A stretch of 50,045 nt of DNA from positions 4,347-54,391 of the forward strand of contig JBHLLT010000018.1 in the NCBI GenBank assembly GCA_048938855.1, given 5' to 3'. Below the pieces are notes generated by a model. It saw only the letters and a program-made list of their open reading frames with translations. It had not been told where the DNA came from and did no database searches. Positions 3,849 through 36,894 of the stretch are shown piece by piece (the first letter of the stretch is position 1; the number at the start of each line of letters is the position of its first letter). Source of the stretch: Promethearchaeota archaeon (GTDB lineage: Archaea; Asgardarchaeota; Lokiarchaeia; Sigyniarchaeales; SOKP01). The position numbers and the translations under genes were made by a program.

Positions 3849-5159
3849 ATGAGTAATGCTAAAAAGATTACAAAATTTACGACTTTAGTTATATTATTAG
3901 CGGCATTTATTGCTTGGATGCATGATGGATATTCCTTAGTGATAATTACGTTATTAGCACCACAATTAAAAACCTTTTTTGGAGTAACAGATGCCGCTAT
4001 TGGTTTAGTAATTTCATTGCAATTTGTATTTACAGTTCCTGGTGCTATATTATTTGGTGAATTGGGTGATAGATTTGGGAGGAAAAATGCTTTAATTCTT
4101 TCTATAGCCTGGGATGCAGTTTTTTCTTCATTAACTTCATTAGTTCCAGCAAATCAATTTATACTCTTCGCTATAATGAGAATGATTTCTGGTTTAGGGG
4201 TGAGTTGGGGACTTTCTTTTTCATTAATTTCTGAATATATTTCTTCCAAGAGGCGAGGTGCAGCAGGAGGATTAGTTCATTCAACATTTGTAATAGGCTA
4301 TATTGGAGCAATTATCGCAACATTATTGATAGGTCAATGGCAATATTGCTTTCTAACAACTCTCTTTCCACTTCCCTTTTTAGTTCTTTTTTGGTTCGCT
4401 CTCCCTGAATCCGCGATCTGGTCAGAATATGATCATATTATGAAAGAGAGGAAAGTTAAACAGAAATTACGGATAAGAGAACTATTTAGTAGAAAATGGT
4501 TAAAATTAACATTATTGCTAATTCTCCTATTTTGGCTGGCAGAATTAGCATATCATGCTTTAGTAGATTTTGCACCTACGTTTTTCCAATACTTATTTGC
4601 TAATGCTGGGGTTATTAATTATGAAAGCGCTTCAAGACTTTTCATGTTAGTTCTTATGGTAATTGCTGCTCTAGGGTTAATTTTCTTTGGATTTCTGAGC
4701 GATTACATTGGGAGAAAAAAAGCATTTTTAGTAGATAATTTAGTAGGAATATTTGGTGGCATACTATTTGCGGTTTTTACAAAATTTCTCTTTAATGATA
4801 ATATACTACTAATATCATCTGTATTTATTACACTTGGTTTTGGCCTTCATGGAATCTTTGGAGTCTGGTCTTCTGAATTATATGATACTGAAATAAGAGC
4901 TTCTGCGAATTCTATAATATTTTCAGTTGCCCGTGGATTAGGATTAGGAGGTTTTGTTGTTGGTGTGATATCTGATTGGCTTAATCCATTTAGCGCAGAT
5001 CCCTTTAGTAATCCATTTATTTCTCTACAAGCACTGGGGACTGGTATGCTCCTTAGTTTAGCGGCTTTTATTGGAATCTTTATTGTACTCCGCTTTGTTC
5101 CTGAACCCAAAGATAAGACACTAACAGCACTTAGAAAAGAACGCCCACTAAAATCTTAA
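3849..5159 (+). CDS. MFS transporter (sugar/aromatic acid:H+ symporter-like)
   Basis: About 12 hydrophobic segments, motif A (GELGDRFGRK and GFLSDYIGRK), PES and SELY..EIRA motifs. ATG at 3849 is preferred over TTG at 3840. Confidence 0.9.
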   Translation: MSNAKKITKFTTLVILLAAFIAWMHDGYSLVIITLLAPQLKTFFGVTDAAIGLVISLQFVFTVPGAILFGELGDRFGRKNALILSIAWDAVFSSLTSLVPANQFILFAIMRMISGLGVSWGLSFSLISEYISSKRRGAAGGLVHSTFVIGYIGAIIATLLIGQWQYCFLTTLFPLPFLVLFWFALPESAIWSEYDHIMKERKVKQKLRIRELFSRKWLKLTLLLILLFWLAELAYHALVDFAPTFFQYLFANAGVINYESASRLFMLVLMVIAALGLIFFGFLSDYIGRKKAFLVDNLVGIFGGILFAVFTKFLFNDNILLISSVFITLGFGLHGIFGVWSSELYDTEIRASANSIIFSVARGLGLGGFVVGVISDWLNPFSADPFSNPFISLQALGTGMLLSLAAFIGIFIVLRFVPEPKDKTLTALRKERPLKS

Positions 5160-5288: not shown

Positions 5289-7586
5289 ATGATTAAAAAT
5301 ATTACTGGAAAAGATAAAATCATAATTACTGTATTTATCTTATTCAATTTTTTTCTAATTTCAAATAATATAATCTCATTTTCAAGTGCTCAGCTTAGTG
5401 GTGAAGATTTTTCATTTTCATCTAAATTGCCTTTTAATGAATATTGCCAAATCGAAGGAGGAAAAGAGAATGCTAGTTCAATAATCATCGATTTACCAGA
5501 ACCTAATTGGTCAATTTCAAATCTTCAAATGAATTTTACTGACATAAGTTTAGGAAGTGAAACTAAAGTTATAGAAGAGACTGAATCAGGGCAGAGCCAG
5601 ATATGGAATAAAAATACTGTATTCAGGACATTTGCATTAGGGATGCAAATTAAAATTTTGGCAGTTACGGACTTACTAGGTGTTTACATCAAAGGATATA
5701 AAACCCCACAAGCAAACGATACAATTAAATTCCAACTTCAAGGGTTTAACGGAATTAATTTGAGCCCTAATGGTACAATTCTTAGATCAATCGATTTAAA
5801 TATATCTACTGATTTAGATTGGTATTATCAAGATTTTTCTTCAAATCCTATTACTCTACCGATTGGAAATTATTCACTTGTGATGAATGGAACAAATATA
5901 CCTACCAATCCTGATGCAAAGTATTTTTGGCAGATAGACAGTCTGGATCCAGAAATTCCTTTTTTACATACATCCTCTTATATAACCTCCTGGACGCTAG
6001 GCACTGTAAACTCAAGTTTTTTATGCAAATTGAAAGTTTCTAATCCAAATCAATTTTATTTTCCTTCAGAATTAAATATGTCTGCTCAGGTTAATGGAGA
6101 TAATTATCAAATAATAGATGGCTTGACGAAAGGGAATGGGTTTTTAAATTTATCTAATTTAAATTACTCCTCTGAGGAGATTGATTTAAACATACCAATC
6201 TCGATTAATCAATCTCTGATATTAAATTATAATTATAATTATTCAATTACTCTGATAAATAACTTTAATGTCACTACAGATGCTAATATTAAAGAATTGA
6301 ATAATAAATGGACATTAGAACCAATATTCAATAGAATTACATCAAATTATTATGTAGAATTCAATTTTCCAAAAAATTGGTATAATTTAACGCTGGATCG
6401 GAAAATAGGATTGACATGGGAAAATGTTACATCAGAAATTAATATAAATATTAATACAAGCGGGATTATCATTCCTAATGGGAGTATCTCAGATGGAGCT
6501 GAATGGAGAATAACAGCGAACTCTCCAAATATTCCGCTTTCGTTAAATGTGCCTTCAACTGAATTCGGACCTAACCAAGAAATTCAGTTTTCTGTTATTG
6601 CTCCAATTTATCCTGGAAATTTAACTTTTAGGTTAGTAAATTCTTTAGGTTTTCTAGCTCAATCAGATGTTGTATATATGTTCAAATCAATTGAAACAGA
6701 AGATCTTTTGCTTAATTATCAACTTTCAGCCAATCCTCACAAAGGAATTTATAAGGCTTACGTTTTTTGGTATAATGATACAGCGGGAGGAATAATAACT
6801 CAAGAATTTAAAGTCAACGTTCCATTTACTATACCTCCTATTTGGATCGTTATTGGTATAACAATTGCAATTACAGGGATTACTGCTGGAGTGATGTCTT
6901 ATCGAACGATCAAGAAATATAGGATTAGAAAGATGGAAGAAGAGCAAAAACTCTTCCATAAATGTATGGATGTTTTAAATTTATATCATGTTATTGTTTC
7001 AGATAAAAAATCTGGCTTAAATATATATCAACAGGATTTTACAGAGAAAAAAATTGACGCAGCTATGATTTCGGGATTTTTACAAGCAATTCATAATTTT
7101 GGTATTGAATTGATCAAAATTGAAGATAGTTCCCAGACTATAAAGCTAGAATACAAGGATTCAATCATAATAATGACTGAATTCGTAAATATAAGACTCA
7201 TCTTAATAATGAAAGCAGCTCCTTCCTCTAATTTCTTATATTCACTTGAAGATTTGGCCTATGATGTCTATAAATATTTTGGTGAGGCAATTGATAAATT
7301 TAATGGTGACATTAAACCATTTAAATCAATAGAAAAATTTTTAAAACAACATCTTAATACAACTCTTACTTATCCAACAAAACTTACCAATCTAGCAAAT
7401 TCAGATAAAATTAGAATAAATCCAAGTGGAAGAGAAATGATAAGTAAAGCAAGATCAATTATGAAAAAAAGAAATTCGGATACTTTTTACCTATCCTCTT
7501 TACTGCTCGAAAAAGAGTGCAGTCCCAAAGATTTAGAAGCAATACTGAATTTGATTGATAAAAAAATTATTGAAATAATAGAGTAA
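5289..7586 (+). CDS. Single-pass membrane glycoprotein: large beta-rich ectodomain, TM, cytoplasmic longin/roadblock-like domain (paralogue A)
   Basis: N-terminal signal/TM, many N-X-S/T sequons, TM at 'IWIVIGITIAITGITAGVM', then 'DKKSGLNIY...MISGFLQAIHNFGIEL' typical of Asgard longin-like domains. Confidence 0.75.
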   Translation: MIKNITGKDKIIITVFILFNFFLISNNIISFSSAQLSGEDFSFSSKLPFNEYCQIEGGKENASSIIIDLPEPNWSISNLQMNFTDISLGSETKVIEETESGQSQIWNKNTVFRTFALGMQIKILAVTDLLGVYIKGYKTPQANDTIKFQLQGFNGINLSPNGTILRSIDLNISTDLDWYYQDFSSNPITLPIGNYSLVMNGTNIPTNPDAKYFWQIDSLDPEIPFLHTSSYITSWTLGTVNSSFLCKLKVSNPNQFYFPSELNMSAQVNGDNYQIIDGLTKGNGFLNLSNLNYSSEEIDLNIPISINQSLILNYNYNYSITLINNFNVTTDANIKELNNKWTLEPIFNRITSNYYVEFNFPKNWYNLTLDRKIGLTWENVTSEINININTSGIIIPNGSISDGAEWRITANSPNIPLSLNVPSTEFGPNQEIQFSVIAPIYPGNLTFRLVNSLGFLAQSDVVYMFKSIETEDLLLNYQLSANPHKGIYKAYVFWYNDTAGGIITQEFKVNVPFTIPPIWIVIGITIAITGITAGVMSYRTIKKYRIRKMEEEQKLFHKCMDVLNLYHVIVSDKKSGLNIYQQDFTEKKIDAAMISGFLQAIHNFGIELIKIEDSSQTIKLEYKDSIIIMTEFVNIRLILIMKAAPSSNFLYSLEDLAYDVYKYFGEAIDKFNGDIKPFKSIEKFLKQHLNTTLTYPTKLTNLANSDKIRINPSGREMISKARSIMKKRNSDTFYLSSLLLEKECSPKDLEAILNLIDKKIIEIIE

Positions 7587-7808: not shown

Positions 7809-10064
7809 ATGAGGAAAATCGTCAAAAAATACTATTTAATTATATTCATTCTTTTTTTATCTTTAATCTCTTTAAATTTTTTAGTGAAAAAATCATATGC
7901 TCAAATTGATCATGATTCCTTATATTCAAATTCAGATTTCATAATCACTGAACTCTCAGAATATATAAGCAATAGTAATAATATAACTTCCATTGACATT
8001 CCATTAGCTTCTGAAACCTGGAATATTACAACTATGGAGATGAATTTCACAGATATTAGATTAGGTGAGGAAGTTAAGACAATTGAGGCTTTAAGTGATG
8101 GTAGCTCAAAAATAACAGTTGGTAATGGTCTTAAAGGTTGGGGAGTACAAGTCAATATTACTGAACCTACAATTATCTTTGGTGCCTATATTTTTGGTTA
8201 TAGAAGTATACAAACTCCAACTACACCACTACATTTTCAATTGACTGGATATGATAGTGGTACTGATACTCCTAACGCTAACATCATAAGTTCCAATTTG
8301 TTCAATATCTCAACAATTCCTAATTGGTATCTTCAAACATTTGAAAATGAAGTTTCTCTGGTTCCAGGACAATATTACCTCACATTAAATGGTTCACAAT
8401 TAATCCCTCAAGAAAAAACAGCATATTATTGGTACTTTAATGACTCAAATTCTGTTAATACAAAATTACATACATCCAAGTATGATGGCTCTAAATGGAA
8501 TCTCGAAGCAACAGGAGAACCTTTATTATATAAATTAATCCAGAGAGTTAATAGAACATATAATCCTCAAGAAATAAACATGTCTTTGAATATTGAGGGG
8601 ATTTCTTATCCAATTAATGCAGATGGAAGTTTTTCATTAAATAAAACTATTTCTCCTAATAGTGATGTATTTCATATTCCTGTTACTAATAACCGCTCAA
8701 TAACTCCATTATTTGACCTAAAGTATCAATTAAAATTAAGAAATCTTCTAAATACCACTGGAAATGTGCTAATCCAAGAAAATTCAGCAAATAATTGGAC
8801 TATTGAGCCTGATATACAAAGAAGTTTTAGTAATTATTCTATTAAATTTAAATATCCCTTAGGTTGGTATAACCTAAGAGTCTTTAGAGACATAGGAGGA
8901 GGCTGGATGGATATAACTTCACAAGTTATTGTAAATACAACAAACTATTTTGTCAGTATACCAGATAATACTATTCTTGAAGGTTCTAATTGGAGAATAA
9001 CAGCAAACTCTCCAAACATCCCACTTTCCTTAAATGTGCCTACAACTGAATTCGGACCAGGACAACAAATCCAATTTTCTGTTATTGCTCCAATAAATCC
9101 TGGAAATTTAACTTTCAGATTAGTTAATTCTTTAGGTTTCCTTGCTCAATCAGATGTTACCTATGTACTAGATTCAATTCGAGTAGAAGATTTATTGATA
9201 AGTTATCAACTTTCAAACAATCCCTATCCAGGAACTTATAAAGCCTATGTATTTTGGCATAATGGAACAGCAGGAGGCGTAATTACTCAAGAATATGAAA
9301 TTATTATTCCTTTTACTTTGGATCCAATGTTAATTGTTATTATTGTTGGGGTAATCGCTTTCATTTCAATATTCAGTTATACCACGTATAAAGTGGCTAA
9401 GAATTCCAAATTGAAGCATGAAGCACATAGACAAAAAATATTCAATAAATACATGGATGTCCTAAACTTAGATTATTTTATAATAATCCATAAGAAGTCA
9501 GGATTAAACGTTTACGAGCAGATTCTTGCAACAAAAACTATTGATGCATCTCTAATAACTGGATTTTTAGAAGCAATTCGAACATTTGGAATTGAGCTTA
9601 CCGGTGCTGATGAACAATCTCAAACAATAAAATTGGAATACCATCAATCAAAAGTTCTTATGTCAGAATTTAAAAGCTTCAGAATCTTACTAATTATGAA
9701 AGAAAATCCCTCTCAAGACTTTTTAGAATCAATTAAAACTCTTTCATATGATATTGATAATAAATATGGAAGTCAAATAGAAAATTTCAAAGGAAATCTT
9801 GATGCGTTTATAGGAATTAGAGATTTACTTGAACAACATCTTCAGACTTCATTGATTTACCCATTGAAAATAGTCGAACAACCGGTTAAATTAAAATCAG
9901 ATGAAAAATCAATGCTGAATAGAGCAAAAAGTTTTATGAAAAAGAAAAGCACAGACTATTTTATCGTCACAAATCTCCTCTCTATAAGAAAAGGTTTTTA
10001 CGCAAAAGAAGCTGAAATAATACTTAATTTAATAAAAAAGAAGGTTTTTCAACCTAAAATCTAA
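7809..10064 (+). CDS. Single-pass membrane glycoprotein with cytoplasmic longin/roadblock-like domain (paralogue B)
   Basis: Same architecture, with 'HKKSGLNVY...LITGFLEAIRTFGIEL'; collinear with paralogue A. Confidence 0.75.
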   Translation: MRKIVKKYYLIIFILFLSLISLNFLVKKSYAQIDHDSLYSNSDFIITELSEYISNSNNITSIDIPLASETWNITTMEMNFTDIRLGEEVKTIEALSDGSSKITVGNGLKGWGVQVNITEPTIIFGAYIFGYRSIQTPTTPLHFQLTGYDSGTDTPNANIISSNLFNISTIPNWYLQTFENEVSLVPGQYYLTLNGSQLIPQEKTAYYWYFNDSNSVNTKLHTSKYDGSKWNLEATGEPLLYKLIQRVNRTYNPQEINMSLNIEGISYPINADGSFSLNKTISPNSDVFHIPVTNNRSITPLFDLKYQLKLRNLLNTTGNVLIQENSANNWTIEPDIQRSFSNYSIKFKYPLGWYNLRVFRDIGGGWMDITSQVIVNTTNYFVSIPDNTILEGSNWRITANSPNIPLSLNVPTTEFGPGQQIQFSVIAPINPGNLTFRLVNSLGFLAQSDVTYVLDSIRVEDLLISYQLSNNPYPGTYKAYVFWHNGTAGGVITQEYEIIIPFTLDPMLIVIIVGVIAFISIFSYTTYKVAKNSKLKHEAHRQKIFNKYMDVLNLDYFIIIHKKSGLNVYEQILATKTIDASLITGFLEAIRTFGIELTGADEQSQTIKLEYHQSKVLMSEFKSFRILLIMKENPSQDFLESIKTLSYDIDNKYGSQIENFKGNLDAFIGIRDLLEQHLQTSLIYPLKIVEQPVKLKSDEKSMLNRAKSFMKKKSTDYFIVTNLLSIRKGFYAKEAEIILNLIKKKVFQPKI

Positions 10065-21980: not shown

Positions 21981-22505
21981 ATGGGTAAATATTTCTTCAA
22001 GATATGTATAGTTGGGGATTTTGGAGTAGGTAAGACTACATTGCTCCATCAATATCTAGAAAGGAGATTTAACCCAAATATAACAACAACTATTGGTTCA
22101 AACTTTTTTGTAAAACGTCTTAAAATTCCGAATGTTGAAGGGTTAATTACTTTACAGATTTGGGATCTTGCAGGACAACCACGTTTTAAATGGGTGAGAC
22201 AGGAATTTTATAAAGGCGCAAAAGGAATAGTTTTTGTATTTGATTTAACTAATCGAGGAACTTTTGAATCTCTTCCAAAATGGAAAAAGGAGATAGAATA
22301 TGTGGTTGATAGATTCTCTAGTGTAATTGTCGGTAATAAGGTTGATTTATTAGATAATGAACATAGGGTATTTGAGAAAGAAGAGTTAATTTATCTCAAG
22401 GAATTTCTTTCTGCATGTCAATATTTTGAAGCTAGTGCAAAATTCGGTAAAAATGTAGAAGAATTTTTTTTAGAATTAGTATCTCACTTGTATAATCATA
22501 GTTAG
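21981..22505 (+). CDS. Rab-like small GTPase
   Basis: G1 GDFGVGKT, G2 TIG, G3 WDLAGQ, G4 NKVD, G5 SAK; RabF-like 'TLQIW' and 'FYKGA'; no C-terminal Cys prenylation motif. Confidence 0.93.
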   Translation: MGKYFFKICIVGDFGVGKTTLLHQYLERRFNPNITTTIGSNFFVKRLKIPNVEGLITLQIWDLAGQPRFKWVRQEFYKGAKGIVFVFDLTNRGTFESLPKWKKEIEYVVDRFSSVIVGNKVDLLDNEHRVFEKEELIYLKEFLSACQYFEASAKFGKNVEEFFLELVSHLYNHS

Positions 22506-23979: not shown

Positions 23980-25533
23980 TTAGTGCTTGGAGATATCTCG
24001 AAAGATTCCTTGGATTATAGATTCTCCTCCTATCAAGGTTACGGAAGCTGTGATGTGAACGGGTATTATTTTTCCTGATTTTGTTATTACTGACGCATCC
24101 TCATTAAGTGCTCCGCTCTGTTCTATATGTATCTTAAACATCTTTGCATATTGTTCTGACACATCTGGAGGGTGAAGAGTAGTTTGATGTGATCCAATAA
24201 TCTCTTCTTTTTTCTTCTCCAAAAGGATTTCTGCTTTTTTATTGCAGTTAATAATCAAGCCCGTCTTAACATCTGCCCAAATTATTGCATCTGCTGCATT
24301 TTCAAAGGCTAATCTAAATTTTTCTTCTGATTCTCTTAATTTTTGTTCGGCTTCTTTCTTTTCAGAGATATCTAAAAGAGTTGCTAAAAATGCATTTTTT
24401 CCTTTATATTGAATGGTTCTGGAATAACTCTCAACCCATTTAATTTCTCCCGATTTAGTAAAAACTCTATAAGGATGAACTATCGAATCTGCTAATTCTG
24501 CATCTACTTTCCTTCTTACTCTTTCCATTGCTATTGCTCGATCTTCTGGATGAACAGCTTTAAAAAATTCAAGTGCAGGCCAATTCGTCATTTCTTCAAT
24601 AGAATAGCCATAAATAATTGATATTGCTTTATTCACATATTTGAGAAGATTATCTTGAATAATTACAACTCCTAAAAATGATTGTTCTGTTATGGTTCTA
24701 AATTTTTCCTCACTCTCTTTTAAAGCTTCTTCTATGCTTTTATGTTGAGTAACATCAGAAAAAACACCATCTGCGTATAATACACCTTCCTTCTCATAGA
24801 CTATTTCTGATCTATCATGTATCCAAATCCATGTTCCATCTTTTCTTTTAATTCTGTACTCTACATCAAATGGACTCCTTTGTTTGAAAAAAGCTTTATA
24901 GGCTTCCATTATATTCTCAACACTGTCGGGATCTATCCTTCCAAACCAAATATCTTCCCCTTCCCTACTATAAATTTCTTCAGGACTATACCCATAGATT
25001 TTTTCTACATTGGGACTGATAAACGCAGTATTACCATCTTGATCTTTTGTCCAAGCCACATCTGGGATGTTTTCAATCAATTCTTTATATTTAAACTCAG
25101 TTTCTTTTAATTTCAACTCTGTAAGCTTGAAAAGTGAAATATCCGAAGTAAGGCCATCAGCATAAAATACTCCAGCTCTCTCATAGACATTGGTAGATAC
25201 ATCCCTTAACCAGATTATATCTCCATCTTTTCTTTTATACTGATACTCAATATTAAATGGTAAATTTTTATGAAACAGCTTATCATAAGCTTGTCTTACA
25301 TTTTCAACATCATTAGGATGTATTCTCTCATACCAAATCTGTTCACTATCTCCTTTATAAAACTCTGCTTGACTATAACCAAAGATTTTTTCAACATTGG
25401 GACTTATGAATGTGATATTCCCTTCAAAATCTTTAGTCCAGATAACATCTGGTATCGTATGAATTAAAAATTCATATTTTTTTTTTAATTCATTTAGTTC
25501 TTCTTCATTCTTAGTGAAATTAGGATTGTCCAT
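23980..25533 (-). CDS. PAS-only sensor protein (4 PAS/PAC domains, no output domain)
   Basis: Four PAS S-box units (IPDVIW..FISP; IPDVAW..FISP; SFLGVV..YVN; AADAII..CN), each ending in D[IV][ST]. The stop codon follows the last PAC. Confidence 0.9.
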   Translation of the reverse strand: MDNPNFTKNEEELNELKKKYEFLIHTIPDVIWTKDFEGNITFISPNVEKIFGYSQAEFYKGDSEQIWYERIHPNDVENVRQAYDKLFHKNLPFNIEYQYKRKDGDIIWLRDVSTNVYERAGVFYADGLTSDISLFKLTELKLKETEFKYKELIENIPDVAWTKDQDGNTAFISPNVEKIYGYSPEEIYSREGEDIWFGRIDPDSVENIMEAYKAFFKQRSPFDVEYRIKRKDGTWIWIHDRSEIVYEKEGVLYADGVFSDVTQHKSIEEALKESEEKFRTITEQSFLGVVIIQDNLLKYVNKAISIIYGYSIEEMTNWPALEFFKAVHPEDRAIAMERVRRKVDAELADSIVHPYRVFTKSGEIKWVESYSRTIQYKGKNAFLATLLDISEKKEAEQKLRESEEKFRLAFENAADAIIWADVKTGLIINCNKKAEILLEKKKEEIIGSHQTTLHPPDVSEQYAKMFKIHIEQSGALNEDASVITKSGKIIPVHITASVTLIGGESIIQGIFRDISKH

Positions 25534-25629
25534 TACAATTTTTTCTCTTTTTGCACTTTTCTATAAGTAAGATCATATATTTAACTTTATTTATTTTATA
25601 GTATTATTTTTCTTGATTAACCCCCATAA

Positions 25630-26520
25630 CTAAGTAACCCAACCAATTCCAGCAAGCAGTCCTTTTTCATTTAAAACGTTATACTTAGATATTCCCACTT
25701 GAGTGAAATCTTCTTTAAAATCTTCATCAAAAAAAATTCTTTCTTTTATAGATTCGCCATAAGACTTTAATAAATTATCAGCAAAAAAATTTTGAGTTAC
25801 TGGTAAATTACCCATTGCACTTAAAAGTATTACACCCCCCTTTTTTGTAACTCTAACACTTTCTTTTAAAATATCTATACGCGATAAATTAAACAAATCG
25901 GGATTATGGCAATACCCAGAAATTACCACTGCATCAAAAAAATTATTAGGTTCACGAATAATTCCATTTATAACATCAGAAATCTTTATATCATCATATC
26001 CCAATTTACTAAAATCTTCCTGTCTTTCCTTTTTGATTAAAACAAATACATCTTTACTATTTTTAATTGCTAATTCAAGATTTGGCACATTAAAGAAATC
26101 TTCTAACATTATTACTAGGGCAGAATCAACGCTGGGACGTCCAACTATTTTTTTAACGATTTCAAACGTCTCTTTTACAAATTGACCTTCATCTATAAAT
26201 GCATTTCTTAAAAAATGATGAAATATATAATTAATAGCAGAAGCTCCTAATCTAGTTGATTCTACCATTATTCTTTTACTCGATCCTTCTTGTATATATG
26301 AAACATATCCCCTACGTTCAAGATTATTTAAACTATTATAAAAACTTGAAGTTGAGAGTGTTTTTGTCTCTTTTAAAAATTGATTTACTTCGATAAATAA
26401 TACATATCTTATCACTGGTCTGGAATATCGAAGAAGAATCTGAAGGGTAATCATTTCAACTATTGAGATATCAGGAAATTCTTCCAATCTATCTTGAGAT
26501 TTGCTCTCTTCACTCTGCAT
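25630..26520 (-). CDS. Winged-helix (PadR-like) regulator fused to a degenerate methyltransferase-like domain
   Basis: 'STSSFYNSLNNLERRGYV' recognition helix and wing; C-terminal 'REPNNFFDAV...LKESVRVTKKGGVI' with no GxGxG. Confidence 0.7.
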   Translation of the reverse strand: MQSEESKSQDRLEEFPDISIVEMITLQILLRYSRPVIRYVLFIEVNQFLKETKTLSTSSFYNSLNNLERRGYVSYIQEGSSKRIMVESTRLGASAINYIFHHFLRNAFIDEGQFVKETFEIVKKIVGRPSVDSALVIMLEDFFNVPNLELAIKNSKDVFVLIKKERQEDFSKLGYDDIKISDVINGIIREPNNFFDAVVISGYCHNPDLFNLSRIDILKESVRVTKKGGVILLSAMGNLPVTQNFFADNLLKSYGESIKERIFFDEDFKEDFTQVGISKYNVLNEKGLLAGIGWVT

Positions 26521-26558
26521 TCTTATTCACTTCTTTACTTTCTTTTCAAGAATTTTTT

Positions 26559-27572
26559 TTATGAAACCCAACCAATTCCTATTAAGTCTCCTTCGAACTT
26601 GAAAACCTTCATATTAGAAATACCCACATCTTTAAAATGTTGTTCAAGCTCTTCTATTTCATAGATCGTTTGAGCATTTGCTTTTTCATAAATATCTATT
26701 AATTTATTAAGGAGAAATCCTTCGGTTCTTGGCAATTTTGCTTGAGCTGTTATTATAATAACCCCATCTTTCTTGGTAACCCTCACTGCTTCTTTAAGGC
26801 AATCAGTAAGATTTAGCCCAAATAGTTCTGAATCTCTATAATAAAAAGGAAAAAATGTCAAATCAAATATTTTATTTGGTTCTCGTATCTTTTTATTATA
26901 AATACTTGAAAAATTTATTCCCTTAAAACCAGTATTTTCTAATTCTTTAGAAAAATCTTCTTTTGATAAAATGAACATGGATCTTGAAACATTTTTGGCT
27001 ATACGAAGAATATTAATATCAATATATTCATTTAGCCAAATAACAAATAAACTTTCAAATTGTATCCTCCCAATTTGTTCAAGTATCGCTTTTTTCATAG
27101 CTTCCATAGTAATTTCTTCCGCTCGCACGCCAAAGCGTATAAAATGTCGAAGAATAACTTCTATTAAAGGACGTGTAAGTGAAGTGATCTCAATAGATTC
27201 AATTTTTCCTTTTTCGTTAAGATTTGAAGTGATAAGACCTCGTTCTTCAAGATTTTTTAAATTGTTATAAAAACTAGAAGTAGAAAATTTCCTAGATTTT
27301 TGTACAAATTGGAAATATCTCTTTTCGTTCGGATCGAGCTTTTTTTTATCAATTGAATCAAGTGAAGTTTGTTCACTATCTAAGAATTGAGCAACTTCTA
27401 AAAATAAGGTATGCCTGATAACCGCTTCAGAATGTCGTAATAATAATTCTAAAGTTAGTATTTCGACAAGAGAAAGATCAATAAAATCCGCAATTGAATA
27501 TGTCAGAATAGAAGAATTATTTTTCATCGATTTTTTAACATTCTCCATAATAAATAATAGCAATTTCATCAA
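26559..27572 (-). CDS. Winged-helix regulator fused to a degenerate methyltransferase-like domain (paralogue of 25630..26520)
   Basis: 'STSSFYNNLKNLEERGLI', 'REPNKIFD', 'LKEAVRVTKKDGVI', ending in IGIGWVS. The true start may be a downstream Met. Confidence 0.7.
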   Translation of the reverse strand: MMKLLLFIMENVKKSMKNNSSILTYSIADFIDLSLVEILTLELLLRHSEAVIRHTLFLEVAQFLDSEQTSLDSIDKKKLDPNEKRYFQFVQKSRKFSTSSFYNNLKNLEERGLITSNLNEKGKIESIEITSLTRPLIEVILRHFIRFGVRAEEITMEAMKKAILEQIGRIQFESLFVIWLNEYIDINILRIAKNVSRSMFILSKEDFSKELENTGFKGINFSSIYNKKIREPNKIFDLTFFPFYYRDSELFGLNLTDCLKEAVRVTKKDGVIIITAQAKLPRTEGFLLNKLIDIYEKANAQTIYEIEELEQHFKDVGISNMKVFKFEGDLIGIGWVS

Positions 27573-27841: not shown

Positions 27842-28750
27842 GTGATAAAAAGCATTTTAAAACGAGTTTTTTCATCTGATAGAAAAGTAGTTATATGTGG
27901 TCTTGACAGCGCTGGAAAAACTACAATGGTAACTTTTCTTCAAACAGGGACATTTTTTGAAAATATCCCAACTATGGGAAAACAAGAAACTATAATGAAG
28001 GTTCAGGGGATAAGGCTAAATTTAATGGATATGGGAGGTCAAAAAGATTTCCGTCCTTTATGGTTAGGTGAAATGGATAATGCTGAATGTGTCATTTTTA
28101 TGCTTGATGCAAGTGCTCAAGAAAGATTTAAGGAAGCTAAAATAGAATTGTGGAAATTAGCATCGATCATGAAAAAAAAGCCACTTATAGTCTTAGCGAA
28201 TAAATATGATCTTCCTAATGTTGCATCTATTAGTGATATAATAGAAACACTTGAATTAGCTAAATTAGCATCATTTGAGGTTTTGCCAATATCCTGTAAA
28301 ACGGGATTTGGAATTGTGGATGCATTCTCTAAAATGTACTATAAAATAACGGGTAAACTTCTAAGCAAACGATTATCACCAAAAGCTTTAACGATATTTG
28401 ATAAAGGAGGGGTTCCTCTGACTACCAAAGCAGGCGAACATCAGGATCAAGATATTTTACGAGGGGGGTTATATTCTGCAATTACTAGCTTTGCTAAGGA
28501 ATCTTTTAATTCCGAATTAAATCTGTTAAAACTTGAAGGGCTCCTCATAATATTCAAAAGAACTAAACATTTAATGGGGTCAATTATTATTGAGGATACA
28601 GAAAATATTGATACTCGTGAAGCAGAGTTAAGATTATCAGAATTACTTGAGCATCTTGAAAATATGTGCCCTGAGCTTGATAGAGACCAGTTAGACCGAG
28701 AAAAAATAGATTTTCTTACTAAACAATTTGCTACCAACATACTAAATTAA
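27842..28750 (+). CDS. Arf-family small GTPase fused to a C-terminal longin/roadblock-like domain
   Basis: G1 GLDSAGKT, G2 PTMG, G3 DMGGQ, 'FRPLW', G4 NKYD, G5 SCK; amphipathic N-terminus MIKSILKRVFS; C-domain 'LTIFDKGGVPL...GGLYSAITSFAKESF'. Confidence 0.9.
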   Translation: MIKSILKRVFSSDRKVVICGLDSAGKTTMVTFLQTGTFFENIPTMGKQETIMKVQGIRLNLMDMGGQKDFRPLWLGEMDNAECVIFMLDASAQERFKEAKIELWKLASIMKKKPLIVLANKYDLPNVASISDIIETLELAKLASFEVLPISCKTGFGIVDAFSKMYYKITGKLLSKRLSPKALTIFDKGGVPLTTKAGEHQDQDILRGGLYSAITSFAKESFNSELNLLKLEGLLIIFKRTKHLMGSIIIEDTENIDTREAELRLSELLEHLENMCPELDRDQLDREKIDFLTKQFATNILN

Positions 28751-28810
28751 TTTTTTTATTTTTTTTATTTTTTAAATAGAAGAGGGAAATAATAAGAGAA
28801 GGGAAAAAAA

Positions 28811-29311
28811 ATGGAATCGACAAAAATTATAATATCCGAACTAAAGGGAACGATTAATTCTAATCCCGAAATTTTATACTCATTTCCTCCACTTGATATA
28901 GCTGATTTAGAATCTAAAAATCTAATAACAAAATTTTTACCATTTGGCTCCAAATCAGGGGAATTTATTTCCTCTGCATTTGGTAAGAAAAAATCAATTC
29001 TATCCTACATTTTTTCAATTAAAAATTCAAGCAATCGAGATAATTTAGTTTCGATCTCAATAATTATAGCCAAAAAAGATAATCCAGATATATATAAACC
29101 AGCTCTGAAGGAAATTATTGATCAACTCGACAATAATAAAGTACTAACAGAAGAAATATTAAAAACTTATTTAGAAGTTATTTTCAAGGGCATAAATAAA
29201 GAAGAAGAAATCTATATTGAGAATATTTTGATTAATCTTCCTGAAATTTTTAATGAAATTAAATCTAAAATAATTAAAACAAAACCACAAATAAGGGGGA
29301 GTTTTTTCTAA
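28811..29311 (+). CDS. Hypothetical protein with a uDENN/longin-like signature
   Basis: 'PEILYSFPP....ITKFLPFG' resembles the uDENN pattern P-x-(I/V)-x-x-x-(F/Y)P...F-x-(F)-P-x-G; recognised by eye only. Confidence 0.55.
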   Translation: MESTKIIISELKGTINSNPEILYSFPPLDIADLESKNLITKFLPFGSKSGEFISSAFGKKKSILSYIFSIKNSSNRDNLVSISIIIAKKDNPDIYKPALKEIIDQLDNNKVLTEEILKTYLEVIFKGINKEEEIYIENILINLPEIFNEIKSKIIKTKPQIRGSFF

Positions 29312-29955
29312 TGGTGGATGCGCTAGTTTCTATTTTGGATAAAATAATTAACTGTGTGAATATATTTTTATTACCCATTATCACTCTACTACTTGTCATT
29401 AAGATAAAAAATGAGAAAAGCGAGACGGGAAAATATAATATAATTCGCTCTCTTATATGTGGATGTTATGCCTGTTTTAGTTGGCTTGTAATTTGGGAAT
29501 TTATAGATGAAAATATACCTATAGGACAAACACTCCATGAATTGATTGGAAATCAATCTCACACTTTTGGTTTGTTTAATTTCGGATATGGAATAATGGT
29601 TTGCCTAGGTCTTATGATGATTGTCTATGCTAATCAAAAAGAAACCCTATATTATACTCCCATTTTTATTTTTAGTGGGATGGTTATATTTTATTTATTA
29701 ACCGGTTTTCAAGAATGGTTAATGATATACATTTATACGGGTTCAGTGCTTGGTCTACTTTTTTTATATATTACAGGATTTCGGCTTAAAGATAATGGTT
29801 CATTGGGTATAGCAATTATGTTTTCTTTGGCATTTAGTACTATATTCTTACAAAATACGTTATTAGCATCTATTATAAGTTTTGGATATATAATATTCGC
29901 AATCGTTTTTGCACTTGGATATTTTGAACCATTTAAAGAACAGGAGGTAAATTAA
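29311..29955 (+). CDS. 7TM membrane protein 1
   Basis: Seven hydrophobic segments counted by eye; start overlaps the previous stop (TAATG). Confidence 0.75.
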   Translation: MVDALVSILDKIINCVNIFLLPIITLLLVIKIKNEKSETGKYNIIRSLICGCYACFSWLVIWEFIDENIPIGQTLHELIGNQSHTFGLFNFGYGIMVCLGLMMIVYANQKETLYYTPIFIFSGMVIFYLLTGFQEWLMIYIYTGSVLGLLFLYITGFRLKDNGSLGIAIMFSLAFSTIFLQNTLLASIISFGYIIFAIVFALGYFEPFKEQEVN

Positions 29956-29956
29956 A

Positions 29957-30619
29957 ATGATCGAAACTCTAATTTGTGAATTAGCATTTCTGATAATAAG
30001 TTTTTTATGTTTAATCTATTCGATAAAAACTTATAGAGAAAGGAAGAATAAAATTGATATCGTTATATTTTTATTCATATCTGCTATAATTTCCCAGTCT
30101 ATTATTCGCTTAGCTCTAATGATTAATTTACCCTTGTTTTTTACTATCGGAGCGTTATTTAATATAACTAATATTGGAATGCTAGTATATGTATGTATTG
30201 AACTAGAGTTTTTACTCTACTTGAAGAATGCGAAAAAATTCTATTCTCTCCCATTAGTAATTAGCTTCTATATAGCAAGCGGTTTAATTTTGTATAATAA
30301 TGGTATCGCATTGTATTTTTTTGCTCTATTCTCGGGGATCTTAACTTTTTATTTACTTGCTCGGGAAGGAGCGAAAAATCAAAATGGAATTGCCTTAAGC
30401 ATTGCAATATTTATAATTATTAATGGGAGTATTCAAACAATAGACATATTTATATTCAATTTTAGTATTATTGGGCCAATTTTAAGAATAATTTCTATTA
30501 CTATCATGCTCTTAGGCGCATCAGGATTTATTGATAAACATATCTTGATTGATAAAGAAAAAGAGCAAAATATCACCAATATTTGGATTTCAAAAATTGT
30601 TACTAAAACAAATAAATAA
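29957..30619 (+). CDS. 7TM membrane protein 2 (distant paralogue of 29311..29955)
   Basis: Seven hydrophobic segments; GGAGGT SD-like site upstream; shares motifs with 7TM-1. Confidence 0.75.
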   Translation: MIETLICELAFLIISFLCLIYSIKTYRERKNKIDIVIFLFISAIISQSIIRLALMINLPLFFTIGALFNITNIGMLVYVCIELEFLLYLKNAKKFYSLPLVISFYIASGLILYNNGIALYFFALFSGILTFYLLAREGAKNQNGIALSIAIFIIINGSIQTIDIFIFNFSIIGPILRIISITIMLLGASGFIDKHILIDKEKEQNITNIWISKIVTKTNK

Positions 30620-30636
30620 TAAAAGATGCTGATAAA

Positions 30637-31089
30637 ATGTCAACAACTATCAACAAGATCTTTAACGGGATTACTAATAACTCTTGGATTAAACGAAAAC
30701 CTCCTAAAAATCTTACAATCTTAAGTAATGGAGGAGTTATTTTGACTAGGAAAGGTGAGCAATACCATTGTGATTCAACTTTTGAAGGGGCTTTTTTAGC
30801 AGCAATTACGATGTTTACTGAAACATTTTTTCAAAAACAATTGATTCAAGTAAGATTAAACAGAAATTCCATCATCATCAAGCGCTCAGATCATTTTATT
30901 ATATATATTATTGCTGAGAATAATAAACATCCTAAAGAGTTAGAAATGGAAGAAGTCTTAGATGATCTTTTAAATTATCTTGAAGTTAATTATCGAATTT
31001 TAGAGGATTGCCCAGGATATATCAACCCCCATAAAGTACAATACCTTCTAAAGCAATTTGCTAATATAAATCATAAAATAAAGAAATAA
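30637..31089 (+). CDS. Stand-alone longin/roadblock-like protein, homologous to the GTPase C-terminal domain
   Basis: PKNLTILSNGGVILT..GAFLAAITMFTETFF..IIIKRSDH aligns with PKALTIFDKGGVPLT..GGLYSAITSFAKESF..IIFKRTKH. Confidence 0.75.
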   Translation: MSTTINKIFNGITNNSWIKRKPPKNLTILSNGGVILTRKGEQYHCDSTFEGAFLAAITMFTETFFQKQLIQVRLNRNSIIIKRSDHFIIYIIAENNKHPKELEMEEVLDDLLNYLEVNYRILEDCPGYINPHKVQYLLKQFANINHKIKK

Positions 31090-31319: not shown

Positions 31320-31598
31320 TTGGAGGATTATACTGAAATTTTACATTTTTTTAATTTAGGTAATCGAACCAGGCAAGAAACGAAAATTTGGTGCTATAAA
31401 AAGATATTAAATTTGATGTATAAATATATTGAAAATCCAAATAGAATAGAAATTAAAAATAGCTTAATCCTAATCTTGAACCTATTCTTTATCGATACTC
31501 CTGACCATTTTCATTCTCAAGGAAGGGATTATATCACCTTAACTGAGAATGAAAAAAGTCAGGTATTAAAAATATTATCAAAAGAGCTAAGAGGGTGA
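31320..31598 (+). CDS. Small helical protein, TFB-adjacent family copy 1
   Basis: 'NSLILILNLF...PDHFHSQG'; paralogous to 32884..33180. Confidence 0.65.
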   Translation: MEDYTEILHFFNLGNRTRQETKIWCYKKILNLMYKYIENPNRIEIKNSLILILNLFFIDTPDHFHSQGRDYITLTENEKSQVLKILSKELRG

Positions 31599-31603
31599 GA
31601 TAA

Positions 31604-32482
31604 ATGGTATTAGTAGAGAATAAATTTGAAATAGATTATGTATGTCCCGAATGTAATGGTAATTTAATCTTAGTTGAAGAGAAAGGAGAAACCGTATGTT
31701 GTCAGTGTGGACTAATTATCTATGAGAGAGAATTAGATCTCTCACGAAGCGGAAAGAGAGTATATAATGCACAAAAATCAGAAAATCCTCAGATAAGATC
31801 TCCTATCTCTCCGCTTATACCAGATATTGGATTATACACCTTTATAGGTAAAAAAAATATTAATAATTCAGATTTAAAGCGAGCTTCTAAAAGGGATTCT
31901 CATTTAACTTGGAAGAGCCGTAATTTTTTAATTGCTACTATAGAAATTAAAAGAATTGGTCATGTTTTAAATCTCCCCATTTATGTGAAAGAAGCAATAT
32001 TAAAACTATATAAAAAAACCTATAGAAGAGATTTACTAAGAGGCCGATCAATCAATGGGATGGTTGCAGCTTGTATATATTATATCTGTAAGCATAAAAA
32101 AATCCCAAGAACTTTCTCAGAAGTTATTGCCGAAAGTTCTGCAAAAAAAGAAGATATTATGAATTGCTTTAAAATTTTAATTAAGGAATTTAACTTAAAA
32201 ATACCAGTTACAGACCCAATATCGCTTATTTCTAAATATTGCGCTAATCTATCATTTACATCTGAAACAGAAATGCTAGCAATTAAAATTCTAAAGACTT
32301 ATTATGAAAAATATTCGCTTGGTGGAGTAGATCCGAAAGGTTTATGCGCGGGGTCTTTATATTTAGCATCAAAATTGAAAAACCAAAGAATAAATCAAAA
32401 AAAAATAGCTGATGTTGTTGGTACCACAGTAGTAACCTTGCGTTCAAGATATAGAGATCTCCTAAAAAGTCTAGAGATATAA
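31604..32482 (+). CDS. tfb: Transcription initiation factor IIB (TFB) paralogue
   Basis: Zn ribbon CPEC...CCQCG; cyclin repeats 'LLRGRSINGMVAACIY..C..KKIPRT' and 'GVDPKGLCAGSLY'; HTH 'QKKIADVVGTTVVTLRSRY'. Confidence 0.93.
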   Translation: MVLVENKFEIDYVCPECNGNLILVEEKGETVCCQCGLIIYERELDLSRSGKRVYNAQKSENPQIRSPISPLIPDIGLYTFIGKKNINNSDLKRASKRDSHLTWKSRNFLIATIEIKRIGHVLNLPIYVKEAILKLYKKTYRRDLLRGRSINGMVAACIYYICKHKKIPRTFSEVIAESSAKKEDIMNCFKILIKEFNLKIPVTDPISLISKYCANLSFTSETEMLAIKILKTYYEKYSLGGVDPKGLCAGSLYLASKLKNQRINQKKIADVVGTTVVTLRSRYRDLLKSLEI

Positions 32483-32505
32483 AAAAAAGATGAAGGTGTC
32501 AATAT

Positions 32506-32868
32506 TTGGTAAGAATCTTTATTGTTGATGATGAGGAAGATATTCGTACCCTCTTTGAAAGGTTTTTAATTTTGAGAGGTTTTGATGTTTTAACTCCCGC
32601 ATGTAATGGAAAAGAAGCGATTGATATGTTTATTCAATTTAATCCTAAACCTGATATAATTTTAATGGATCATCATATGCCCTTAAAAACCGGGATTGAA
32701 GCAGCTAAGGAAATTAAACAACTTAACGGGAATGTAAAAATAATTTTTATTAGTGGGGATACCCAAATAAAAGAAAAAGCGCTTGCTACAGGGGCTATTG
32801 ACTTTATAATAAAACCATTTAAGGTGAATGATATAATAGAATCAATTACTAATGCATTAGCCTCATAG
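32506..32868 (+). CDS. Single-domain response regulator receiver (CheY-like)
   Basis: 'IVDDE', phospho-Asp in 'ILMDHHMP', 'FISG', 'IIKPF'; GAAGGTG SD-like site before the TTG start. Confidence 0.92.
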   Translation: MVRIFIVDDEEDIRTLFERFLILRGFDVLTPACNGKEAIDMFIQFNPKPDIILMDHHMPLKTGIEAAKEIKQLNGNVKIIFISGDTQIKEKALATGAIDFIIKPFKVNDIIESITNALAS

Positions 32869-32883
32869 AATAAAAAACTTAAA

Positions 32884-33180
32884 ATGAAAGGAAAATATGT
32901 TATGGATATTTATGATGAAATTTTAAAGCTTTTTGACGAACAAGAATTAAAAAGTGAAATTAATCTTATCTCTATTCTAATAATATTAATCAGAATTTCA
33001 AGATATAATTTTAAGATAATCTCAAAAGGTAATTATCTTAATTATTTAATTTTGATTCTTAATTTATTAATGGTAAATATCCCAGATTACTGTCATAGTA
33101 AAGGAAAGGCAATCAAGATGCTAAATCTCCCAGAATATAAAATATTCATGGAAGAATTGAGGAGAGAATTTCTACACTAA
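32884..33180 (+). CDS. Small helical protein, TFB-adjacent family copy 2
   Basis: 'NYLILILNLL...PDYCHSKG'. Confidence 0.65.
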   Translation: MKGKYVMDIYDEILKLFDEQELKSEINLISILIILIRISRYNFKIISKGNYLNYLILILNLLMVNIPDYCHSKGKAIKMLNLPEYKIFMEELRREFLH

Positions 33181-34611: not shown

Positions 34612-36894
34612 ATGAATCCTTTTCCAAATTTGAAAAAAACATTAATTTTTATTATTCTCTTCAGTTTTTTTAGTATAGCGTTATCTATTGATATTAGTTA
34701 TGCATCAGAAGAGGATATGCCGCTATATTTTGATTTTAAATATCAAATGTTTCAAACCTCTATAAAACAAGGAACTTTTCAAAATGCTAGTTCATTTGAC
34801 ATTGAATTACCTTCCTCAGACTGGAACATTAAAGATGTTGAGATAAATTTTACTAATATAAAATTTGATACTGAAACTATTGTAATTGAAGATAATCCTA
34901 TTGATTCAAACCTTATTTCAAAAGCTAAGCACGGTTGGGGAGTACAAATTAGGATCTTAGATCCAACAATAATATATGGAGTTCAGATTTATGGCAATAA
35001 TTATTCAACTCAGTCAGCTTTAGTCTATGTTCAGATTAATGGATACAATAACCAAACTAATGCTCCAGATAATGATTTCTATGGATCACCAATACTTCTT
35101 AACATGTCATATTCTGCTACACCTGCATGGCATACTCAAACATTTTCATCACCAATTAATTTAGAACCTGGAAATTACTATTTAGTTCTCAACGGAACGG
35201 AAATAGGACTTAGACCTCAACCTAAATATTATTGGTATTATAATAATGTTAATCCAACTTATCCTGAATTATACAAATCTAGTTACGACTCTAGCTCATG
35301 GTCAGATGGTACGCAAGGAGCTCCTGTTTTATATAAACTAATTCAAAAAATTAACGCTCCTGTTTATCCAGAAGAAATAAATATGACGGCAAATATTAAT
35401 GGAAATACACTTAGCGTTTCAAATGGAAAATCTCAAAATACAGGGTATCTTAGTAAAATAGATTTTAATTATAAACCAAATACTACCAATCTAAACATCA
35501 AAATTAGTAATAATAAAACCTCAACACTGACATTTAATGGTACATATAATTTTGAAATAAATAATATTTTTATGATCCCCAGTCAATTAACCGTGGGGAT
35601 TAATCAAACAAATAAATGGATTCTGACCCCTCAAATAACTAGATTTTCAAATGATGATACTATAAGATTTGAATACCCAAATAGTTGGTATAACTTAACA
35701 ATATCTCGAAACTTAGGGTTATTATGGGAAAATATCAATTCAGAAGTTATAATTAATACAATTAATAAATTTATAATAATACCTAATGAAACAATTCAAG
35801 ATGATGTTCTATGGAAAATAGAAGCAAATTCTCCTAATATTGAATTTGAGCTCAATTATACTCCAAACCCTCTTAAAGTAGATCAAAAATTACTTATCTC
35901 TATTAAATCACCTCTTTTAGAAGGTAATTATACATTCAGATTATATGATGCTCAAGAACAAGTATATACAATTACAAAACAACTACCTTTACAAGAAAAT
36001 ACCTTCAATTACAACATAACTCAAGAACCAGTTGGAGGTATTTATTATGCTTATGTAGTATGGAGTAACAAAACAGATGCAGGGGTTCAGATGGCTAAAT
36101 TTGAAATAATTAGTGGTGATGGTCCAATCCCAATTCCCTGGCTACCTATAATTATTATTATTGGATCAGTTTCAATTGGAGGCTTAGCTATTGGAGAAAC
36201 TACTTATAAATTAATTAAAAGATTGGAATCTAAGAAAAGAGAAAATATTAAGCTTATTCTTGAGAAATGTACTGAAATTACGAGTTTAAAGCATATAATC
36301 GTGCTCCATAGTAAATCAGGGATTGATGTTTATTCTGAATCATATGAAGAAGAGGAACTCGATCCTACTTTAATATCCGGATTTCTTCAGGCGATCCATA
36401 ATTTTGGTACAGAGGTTTTAGAAAAATCTAAAGAAACGCGAACTGTTAAAGTTGAATATAAAAAATCTATAATTTTAATGACAGAATTTGTTAATTTAAA
36501 ATTAATAATTATTATGGGAAAAAATCCTTCCAAAAACTTCCTATATTCTGTTGAATCACTTGCTTATTATATATACAAATACTATGGTAATTTACTTGAT
36601 AACTTTGATGGTGGTCTTAAAAAATTTCTAGGAATAAGTAAATTAATTGAAAAAATCCTCAATGTTTCATTTATTGCACCCCTAAAAATATCAATGAATA
36701 AAAATATTAAATTGACCGCAAATGAAAAGGATATGATAAATAAAGCATCTAAGTTTATGCGAGAACATGATTTTGACCATTTCTATTCTCTGTATCTCCT
36801 CCCTGATAATGCTTGTAGTCCAAAAGATTATGATATTATTCTTAAATTGATTAAGAAAGGGATATTCAGTCCAATAGAAAAAACTCCTGATTAG
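34612..36894 (+). CDS. Single-pass membrane glycoprotein with cytoplasmic longin/roadblock-like domain (paralogue C)
   Basis: Collinear with A and B; 'HSKSGIDVY...LISGFLQAIHNFGTE'. Confidence 0.75.
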   Translation: MNPFPNLKKTLIFIILFSFFSIALSIDISYASEEDMPLYFDFKYQMFQTSIKQGTFQNASSFDIELPSSDWNIKDVEINFTNIKFDTETIVIEDNPIDSNLISKAKHGWGVQIRILDPTIIYGVQIYGNNYSTQSALVYVQINGYNNQTNAPDNDFYGSPILLNMSYSATPAWHTQTFSSPINLEPGNYYLVLNGTEIGLRPQPKYYWYYNNVNPTYPELYKSSYDSSSWSDGTQGAPVLYKLIQKINAPVYPEEINMTANINGNTLSVSNGKSQNTGYLSKIDFNYKPNTTNLNIKISNNKTSTLTFNGTYNFEINNIFMIPSQLTVGINQTNKWILTPQITRFSNDDTIRFEYPNSWYNLTISRNLGLLWENINSEVIINTINKFIIIPNETIQDDVLWKIEANSPNIEFELNYTPNPLKVDQKLLISIKSPLLEGNYTFRLYDAQEQVYTITKQLPLQENTFNYNITQEPVGGIYYAYVVWSNKTDAGVQMAKFEIISGDGPIPIPWLPIIIIIGSVSIGGLAIGETTYKLIKRLESKKRENIKLILEKCTEITSLKHIIVLHSKSGIDVYSESYEEEELDPTLISGFLQAIHNFGTEVLEKSKETRTVKVEYKKSIILMTEFVNLKLIIIMGKNPSKNFLYSVESLAYYIYKYYGNLLDNFDGGLKKFLGISKLIEKILNVSFIAPLKISMNKNIKLTANEKDMINKASKFMREHDFDHFYSLYLLPDNACSPKDYDIILKLIKKGIFSPIEKTPD

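Follow-up and report, generated by a model that had tools for sequence, protein, structure and literature searches.

What is the role of a stand-alone protein that resembles the C-terminal part of a GTPase encoded four genes upstream? This question is raised by a locus in the genome of a Promethearchaeota archaeon (GTDB lineage Archaea; Asgardarchaeota; Lokiarchaeia; Sigyniarchaeales; SOKP01; GenBank assembly GCA_048938855.1, contig JBHLLT010000018.1), from which the whole 50,045-nucleotide stretch between positions 4,347 and 54,391 of the forward strand was analysed (hereafter, the window). Five co-oriented genes of the window, spaced by 60, -1, 1, and 17 nt, encode the GTPase, a 166-amino acid (aa) protein, two seven-transmembrane (7TM) proteins, and the stand-alone protein (hereafter, the free or 30637 protein, after its start coordinate). 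The original prediction, made from the letters of this stretch, took the GTPase and the free protein for a pair of the Rag/Ragulator kind. Our analysis points to a different arrangement: the overall best explanation, to which we give slightly less than even confidence, is a membrane-coupled switch of the Arf-related (ArfR) type with its own longin GTPase-activating protein (GAP) and with the free copy of the GTPase tail as a lineage-specific modulator. The features concerned, in window coordinates, are:

27842..28750, + strand: ArfR-type GTPase, 302 aa, with a C-terminal longin tail (Pfam Arf, AlphaFold2 (AF2) model, Foldseek)
27842..27874, + strand: N-terminal helix (aa 1-11), short, basic, and amphipathic, a candidate anchor to the membrane (hydrophobic moment)
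28313..28351, + strand: alpha5, the last helix of the G domain (helix 158-170 in the model; its homologue is the N-terminus of the free protein)
28382..28750, + strand: longin tail, aa 181-302, similar to Fuz and the first longin of Mon1 (order of elements in the model, weak Pfam match to Fuz_longin_1)
28811..29311, + strand: 166-aa NPRL2-like longin, candidate GAP (AF2 model, fold match, conserved Arg76, complex model)
29036-29038, + strand: Arg76 of the 166-aa protein, candidate arginine finger, located in the loop that joins strands 4 and 5
29311..29955, + strand: 7TM protein a, its start overlapping the stop of the 166-aa protein (seven hydrophobic segments)
29957..30619, + strand: 7TM protein b, after a 1-nt gap (seven segments; distant paralogue of a)
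30637..31089, + strand: free protein of 150 aa made up of alpha5 and a longin domain, starting 17 nt downstream of 7TM b (alignment, synteny, dN/dS, Atlas model)

The homology of the GTPase tail and the free protein, the premise of the original prediction, is well supported. BLASTP aligned GTPase residues 163-298 with residues 6-143 of the free protein (47 of 142 positions identical, 33%; E 1e-18), the local alignment score of 163 lies far above those of 2000 shuffles (mean 30.6, standard deviation 4.7, maximum 63), and the profile-profile comparison that had been suggested as a check yielded a probability of 99.9 and an E value of 2.7e-32 over 135 columns. The match is collinear as predicted, and all four motifs quoted in its favour are aligned; its length is about 140 aa rather than about 110 and includes alpha5 and the linker. 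Residues 1-28 of the free protein match alpha5 and the linker without gaps, with Met1 paired with Ile/Val 158-159 of the GTPase. Because the match begins at alpha5, the free gene is a copy of the GTPase gene minus everything upstream of that helix; the alignment thus establishes the 30637 protein as a truncated duplicate of the GTPase gene that lacks the G domain. No other close homologues of either the tail or the free protein were found in this genome. The two domains are also predicted to have the same fold, with the Atlas model of the free protein showing a template modelling (TM) score of 0.76 over 141 residues to the cluster of ArfR tails.

The GTPase itself belongs with Arf. It is encoded by an open reading frame with a GTG start and an in-frame TAG two codons upstream, and its gene family is present as a single copy in this 97% complete genome. 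The Pfam match to Arf (E 2.9e-33) exceeds that to Gtr1_RagA (3.9e-5) by 28 orders of magnitude. The AF2 model (predicted local distance difference test, pLDDT, 85.6; predicted TM score 0.81) is closest to GerdArfR1 (8oum; Foldseek E 6.6e-17, 34% identity), followed by Arl3 and Arf1, and GerdArfR1 also ranks first in the profile search (E 1.2e-34); the top 50-60 PDB matches are all Arf, Arl, or ArfR. Matches to the G domain filled the whole-model fold searches. The G1-G5 motifs are invariant or nearly so among 80 orthologues, with G4 being NKxD in 79 of them; the switch region is WxxGGQ-like, with Met in the place of the Trp that precedes the DxGGQ motif. From these best structural and profile matches, we assign the GTPase to the ArfR type.

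Downstream of the linker, the modelled tail opens with a strand and proceeds as strand-strand-helix-three strands-helix-helix, with two long helices at the end. This is the longin order, as defined relative to the roadblock pattern previously (PMC10933270), and the weak Pfam matches of the tail are to Fuz_longin_1. Within the ArfR family members examined, the tail is confined to Loki-type Asgard archaea, and members from other Asgard families are tail-less.

These findings bear directly on the Rag/Ragulator label. Rag/Gtr GTPases carry a His in the G4 motif (HKxD) and form heterodimers of two paralogous GTPases, each with a C-terminal roadblock domain that has its own N-terminal helix and a single C-terminal helix; Ragulator consists of roadblock heterodimers that are held by lipid-anchored LAMTOR1 and bind the Rag tails. 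In the literal form of the original prediction, a Rag-type GTPase docks via its roadblock on a free, Ragulator-like roadblock that anchors it to the membrane, and we consider this almost certainly wrong. The profile of alpha5 plus the tail does weakly match LAMTOR3 (E 0.1) and the dynein roadblock (E 0.4), and roadblock models reach a TM score of 0.60, but such matches are expected given the core shared by longin and roadblock domains. Against the label stand the Arf-type G domain with its NKxD motif and WxxGGQ-like switch region, the presence of only one such GTPase in the genome, and the longin order of the tail, with longin clusters (TM 0.67-0.71) outscoring roadblock clusters (0.58-0.60) in the comparison with the free-protein model. 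The genome does encode Rag-like proteins, but its 16 matches to PF04670 at E<=1e-8 do not include this GTPase and are all located elsewhere. The free protein, a longin by its model and a duplicate of the tail, has no Ragulator identity either, and there are no such genes in the operon.

The Arf-like amphipathic N-terminal helix fared better: residues 1-11 have a hydrophobic moment of 0.64 and a net charge of +3, although the helix is short and, in the model, spans residues 2-10 at a pLDDT below 50. Its membrane role would follow from the characterised HodArfR1 and GerdArfR1 (10.1101/2024.02.28.582541). The lack of Gly2, also pointed out originally, is real in this sequence but peculiar to it, given that 71 of the 80 orthologues have Gly2; we attach no meaning to it, all the more so because Asgard Arf proteins have been reported to bind membranes without relying on myristoylation (PMC11914678).

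A second component of the putative switch is the product of the gene next to that of the GTPase, a conserved neighbour that the original prediction did not take into account. Pfam and PDB sequence searches with the 166-aa protein gave nothing useful, and its identification comes from the AF2 model (pLDDT 87), which matches 8fw5_B (taken as the NPRL2 chain from the chain length) with a Z score of 13.9 and a root mean square deviation of 3.0 over 142 aligned residues. GATOR1/SEAC chains rank at the top (Z 13.9 and 13.1), above other longins such as FLCN (9.8), and the Foldseek match to GATOR1 has an E value of 2.8e-5. Arg76, between the strands 61-70 and 78-87, is retained in 71 of 77 homologues. 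A guanine nucleotide exchange factor of the uDENN type was considered for this protein and is disfavoured, since the GATOR1 chains outscore both DENND1B and DENND10 and a conserved arginine is in keeping with a GAP.

Modelled together with the GTPase, GTP, and Mg, the 166-aa protein yields an ipSAE score of 0.70, compared to 0.00 for the best of three controls; among reference pairs, 58 of 80 solved ones attained this mark, as did 2 of 110 mismatched ones, figures that apply only roughly to the present case. The runs agree in >=98% of contacts with a partner pLDDT of >=85. The modelled contacts connect GTPase residues 22-23, 40-48, 67-69, and 95 with partner residues 11-19, 36, 43-49, 69, and 76-79, so that the 166-aa protein is placed on the P-loop and both switches, with its Asn-Pro region (15-19) and residues 76-79 included in the interface. 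No tail residue is among the confident contacts, which, by the rule of the tool, is uninformative either way. The same arrangement on the P-loop and switches has been described for SMCR8 on ARF1 (PMC8213707).

Several points weigh against this assignment. The equivalence of Arg76 with NPRL2 Arg78 would follow from the position in the loop, not from a printed residue pairing. The GP motif ahead of strand 2 that marks catalytic longins (PMC12290439) reads NP in this clade (Asn18-Pro19 in the window); at its position, 52 of the 77 homologues have Pro and 23 have Gly, and the true GP is found in a few distant members. The complex score supports binding between the 166-aa protein and the GTPase, but given that the modelled geometry is that of SMCR8-ARF1, the high score may reflect the likeness to solved complexes. 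With these reservations, it is quite probable, in our judgment, that the 166-aa protein pairs with this ArfR as its GAP.

The genomic context of the two genes is conserved. Of 18 genome loci, 17 have the GAP-like gene and both 7TM genes adjoining that of the GTPase, and the exception is cut by a contig end; the close relatives are Promethearchaeota (Loki-type Asgard) genomes, and in these 17 loci the GTPase gene usually comes last, with no free copy. The same genes are found also in other Loki families, and the 166-aa family is represented in 73 of the 400 Asgard genomes searched. In 13 of 20 loci chosen from distant matches, the homologue of the 166-aa protein is encoded next to an ArfR of 175 aa that lacks the tail and a membrane protein with several passes; homologues carry the labels Heimdallarchaeota and Lokiarchaeota. 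The conserved core of the operon is, accordingly, the GTPase, the 166-aa protein, and the 7TM genes. The two 7TM proteins are related to each other (hhalign probability 96.5, E 9.7e-10, 176 columns). For protein a, no Pfam family was found, and its Atlas model resembles bacterial 7TM sensor domains (TM 0.62-0.67); Pfam searches detected no match to a GPCR family among the operon proteins. A scan for sigma-70 promoters, a model unsuited to archaea, stayed at the chance level. In a literature search of incomplete coverage, we found no paper on an operon of ArfR, NPRL2-like, and 7TM genes or on a free tail duplicate.

Several variations of this context were noted. Block duplications of the cassette occur in L094, L097, L103, L106, L008/L012, and L013/L018, with the two copies in tandem, in inverted orientation, or separated by about 13 kb. 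In L101:5717-6400 and L102:5425-6081, the NPRL2-like domain is preceded by an N-terminal domain that contains Cys residues and resembles a zinc ribbon, and no ArfR is encoded in the vicinity. In family f13 (L112-L118), the genes after the trio of GAP-like, ArfR, and membrane genes form a cluster that encodes proteins of ~467 aa, whose N-termini weakly match longins. Most family-f1 genomes encode, two genes ahead of the cassette, a conserved 250-aa protein with a longin-like N-terminus (L005:1685-2437 and its equivalents); where this protein is found in genome G000 (C65:18431-19186), ABC-transporter-like genes occupy the usual place of the cassette, which puts the window's cassette at a different locus.

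Of the eight scorable loci in which the GTPase comes first, seven, from three genera, have the free gene in fifth place: the window, L051, L052, L058, L059, L061, and L134. It is absent from the eighth, L014/G029; L050 has the free gene on a contig that is cut upstream. Across the order, it was detected in 3 of 154 genomes, each from a different genus, and a metagenome scan with the free protein returned no match. The window-type free copies form one clade (support 98/95). The seven full-length copies are intact frames of 145-169 aa, 24-60% identical to that of the window, with dS of 0.6-1.4, and they share invariant residues of their own (Glu50, Phe87, and Tyr90). For the closest pairs, dN/dS is 0.21-0.33, compared to 0.09-0.10 for the fused tail; by these ratios, the free gene is under purifying but relaxed selection. 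That duplication and deletion of cassettes left this gene behind as a slowly decaying relic, with no lasting role, seems to us improbable. Such a view would draw on the frequency of tandem cassette duplications (L094, L097, L103, and L106), on the remnants left by cassette deletions, on the loss of the gene in G029, and on an evolutionary rate 2-4 times that of the tail; it sits poorly with seven diverged frames that remain open at these dN/dS values and have their own clade-specific residues.

The origin of this clade is less clear-cut. The free copies combine the longer loop of the GTPase-first tails with the Glu207 of distant tails. They fall outside all fused tails of family f1 (88/87, unstarred), and a clade of free copies with GTPase-first tails is not rejected (p-AU 0.08). 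The possibility that the free gene is the remnant of a GTPase gene at its usual last position was considered and is not established by these trees.

Free tails arose at least four times, judging from supported branches. Genus g27 has lost the rest of the cassette from the usual locus, where a helix-plus-tail frame remains open (dN/dS 0.22-0.38, dS >1). Lone frames occur in L164:2963-3421, L166:2485-2919, L167:4550-5026, and L165:4609-5082, in the place where the cassette is normally found, flanked by an FAD oxidoreductase gene and a convergent gene for a 785-aa TPR protein; these loci have lost the G domain together with the GAP-like and the two 7TM genes. Neither a GAP-like gene nor a fused GTPase was found in the lone-tail genomes, which are 71% and 91% complete. 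In family f2, the solitary tails L132:5189-5695 and L133:4468-4908 are nested among f2 fused tails, an independent origin. Decayed remnants of the tail, some clearly broken, are seen in L168, L170, and L171.

This recurrence raises the alternative that the free domain is an autonomous adaptor, or a competitor for an outside target of the tail, which would never need to contact the GTPase; the target could be the C-termini of the 7TM proteins, which are cytoplasmic and conserved, or a further longin, for example the upstream 250-aa protein. The at least four origins, the g27 frames that stay open after the loss of the cassette, and the private invariant residues of the window-type copies all fit, but the free gene of the window's clade stays in the operon across three genera, and one g27 frame (L167) has no ATG, GTG, or TTG ahead of the domain. 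On balance, we regard an adaptor of this kind, with either target, as unlikely.

The possible combination of the free protein with the GTPase tail appears more attractive. The free copies retain the hairpin GG and the small-residue motif of helix 1 that belong to the longin dimerisation face, and they alter the near-invariant fused-tail positions G246, S247, E262, H271, and N299; at position 207, every tail of the free-gene clade has Arg and every free copy has Glu. The single likeliest role for the free protein would be to take the place of a tail in a longin dimer, a proposal that we make with some doubt. There is much to be said against it: the Arg/Glu contrast at position 207 represents one event, with Glu found also in distant fused tails and Lys in tails that have no free partner; the dimer face shows no excess of conserved positions among the free copies; most operons, and G029 too, have no free copy, so the free gene is dispensable; and lone tails persist in genomes where no GTPase of this kind was found, so that a tail can be kept without its pairing partner, which weakens the claim that GTPase pairing is the sole reason for a free copy.

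A further alternative is that the free longin, and the tail, form the non-catalytic half of a two-longin GAP with the NPRL2-like protein, in the manner of NPRL3, C9orf72, or FNIP. The tail, tethered by alpha5, may not reach in cis, and the free copy would then complete or sequester the GAP. Eukaryotic longin GAPs are indeed longin heterodimers (PMC12290439; PMC8213707), the genes concerned share an operon, and in L100:5573-6400 (G280:C8), where the 7TM genes and the G domain are missing, an NPRL2-like domain and a longin tail are fused in frame into a 275-aa protein. This fusion, however, is a single case, possibly a deletion product like the decayed L170. In the 13 loci with a GAP-like gene and a tail-less ArfR, no second longin is seen in the cassette; lone tails have been kept in genomes in which no GAP-like gene was detected; and a profile comparison shows no similarity between the Fuz/Mon1-type tail and the GAP longin (probability 0.9). 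We consider the two-longin GAP unlikely as well, albeit worth keeping in view. Carried further, it would make the operon a complete archaeal forerunner of the C9orf72-SMCR8/GATOR1 design, in which the ArfR would be switched on by the 7TM pair and off by a two-longin GAP, with Arg76 coming from the NPRL2-like protein and with a second longin that would have been, at first, the GTPase's own tail and, in this clade, the freed subunit; we give this scenario a low probability. If true, it would mean that a GTPase tail is turning into a separate regulatory subunit, recurring several times.

Under the preferred reading, that of the ArfR switch with its own GAP and a modulating free tail, GTP loading would free the N-terminal helix and bring the GTPase to the membrane, as extrapolated from characterised ArfR proteins. 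The paired 7TM proteins would supply the input or a docking site; the conservation of the operon is what suggests this role, and such reliance on synteny counts against the scheme. The 166-aa protein, as modelled, would bind the P-loop and both switches and insert Arg76, turning the switch off. The longin tail, a Loki-type addition, would serve as a dimerisation or docking module, in which the free protein would replace one tail, in the simplest case converting a tail-tail dimer into a tail-free one, and, binding no nucleotide, would tune the assembly or location of the switch. The free protein would accordingly be an accessory modulator, not an anchor of the Ragulator type.

The surroundings of the operon in the window contain other genes of note. 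Downstream, at 31320-33180, paralogous 92- and 98-aa proteins, with no Pfam match at E 0.01, flank a TFIIB paralogue and a lone response regulator, and this block follows the free gene also in L050, L051, L052, and, in part, L061. Divergent from the operon, at 23980-27572 (- strand), two winged-helix proteins with a weakly methyltransferase-like C-terminal part and a PAS-only protein are encoded, and L056 and L059 have comparable genes ahead of that of the GTPase. Three paralogues of 750-765 aa (34612-36894, 5289-7586, and 7809-10064), 35-37% identical, combine an extensive N-terminal region with a membrane helix and with a cytoplasmic part of longin-like appearance; the first of these had no Pfam match. 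A stand-alone Rab-like GTPase (21981-22505; Pfam Ras 2e-41) is located 5.3 kb upstream, outside the conserved cassette.

How does this operon compare with known systems? With Rag and Ragulator, including LokiRagO (8yl2) and LokiRagM (9m28), it shares a GTPase that ends in a domain with the roadblock/longin superfold and a free domain of the same superfold nearby; it differs in the Arf-type G domain, in having a longin instead of a roadblock, in the lack of a second GTPase subunit, and in the nature of the free domain, which here is a recent, patchily distributed, and dispensable duplicate of the tail. GTPases fused to longin or roadblock domains, as well as NPRL2-like longins, have been catalogued in Asgard archaea already (PMC10933270; 10.1101/2020.10.19.343400), and both architectures are common to those sets and the present operon. 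In MK-D1, the GTPases are generally found outside operons with longins (PMC10933270), and the operon reported in the 2020 preprint combines roadblock, Rab-like, and DENN genes (10.1101/2020.10.19.343400). For the free tail, the interest is narrower, namely, a conserved, repeatedly evolved copy without a G domain that illustrates how stand-alone longins bud from GTPase fusions.

The closest relatives of the GTPase are the Asgard ArfR/AArf proteins (GerdArfR1, 8oum/8oun, and HodArfR1, 8ouk/8oul; 10.1101/2024.02.28.582541; PMC11914678), which have the same Arf-type G domain and an N-terminal amphipathic helix with no need for myristoylation. The protein described here departs from them by its C-terminal longin tail, by the Met in place of Trp before DxGGQ, and by its location in a conserved operon with a candidate GAP. 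The native regulators of Asgard Arf proteins have been stated to be unidentified (PMC11914678), and whether ArfR or Rag proteins are the partners of Asgard arginine-finger longins has been posed as a question (PMC12290439). The operon offers a matched, single-copy pair of an ArfR and a candidate GAP, conserved across Asgard families and modelled in the GAP geometry, and hence a testable candidate for a regulator of archaeal Arf proteins. Like the eukaryotic longin GAPs (GATOR1 NPRL2-NPRL3, FLCN-FNIP2, and C9orf72-SMCR8 on ARF1; PMC8213707; PMC12290439), the candidate is an NPRL2-like longin that has a conserved arginine in a loop and a proline where the GP motif is expected, and its model places it over the switches of a GTPase of the Arf family; in contrast to them, it is a stand-alone protein of 166 aa with no DENN domain and with NP for GP, many of its operons encode no second longin, and its putative substrate is encoded in the same operon. 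If the pairing is as modelled, longin GAP activity toward Arf would be older than eukaryotes.

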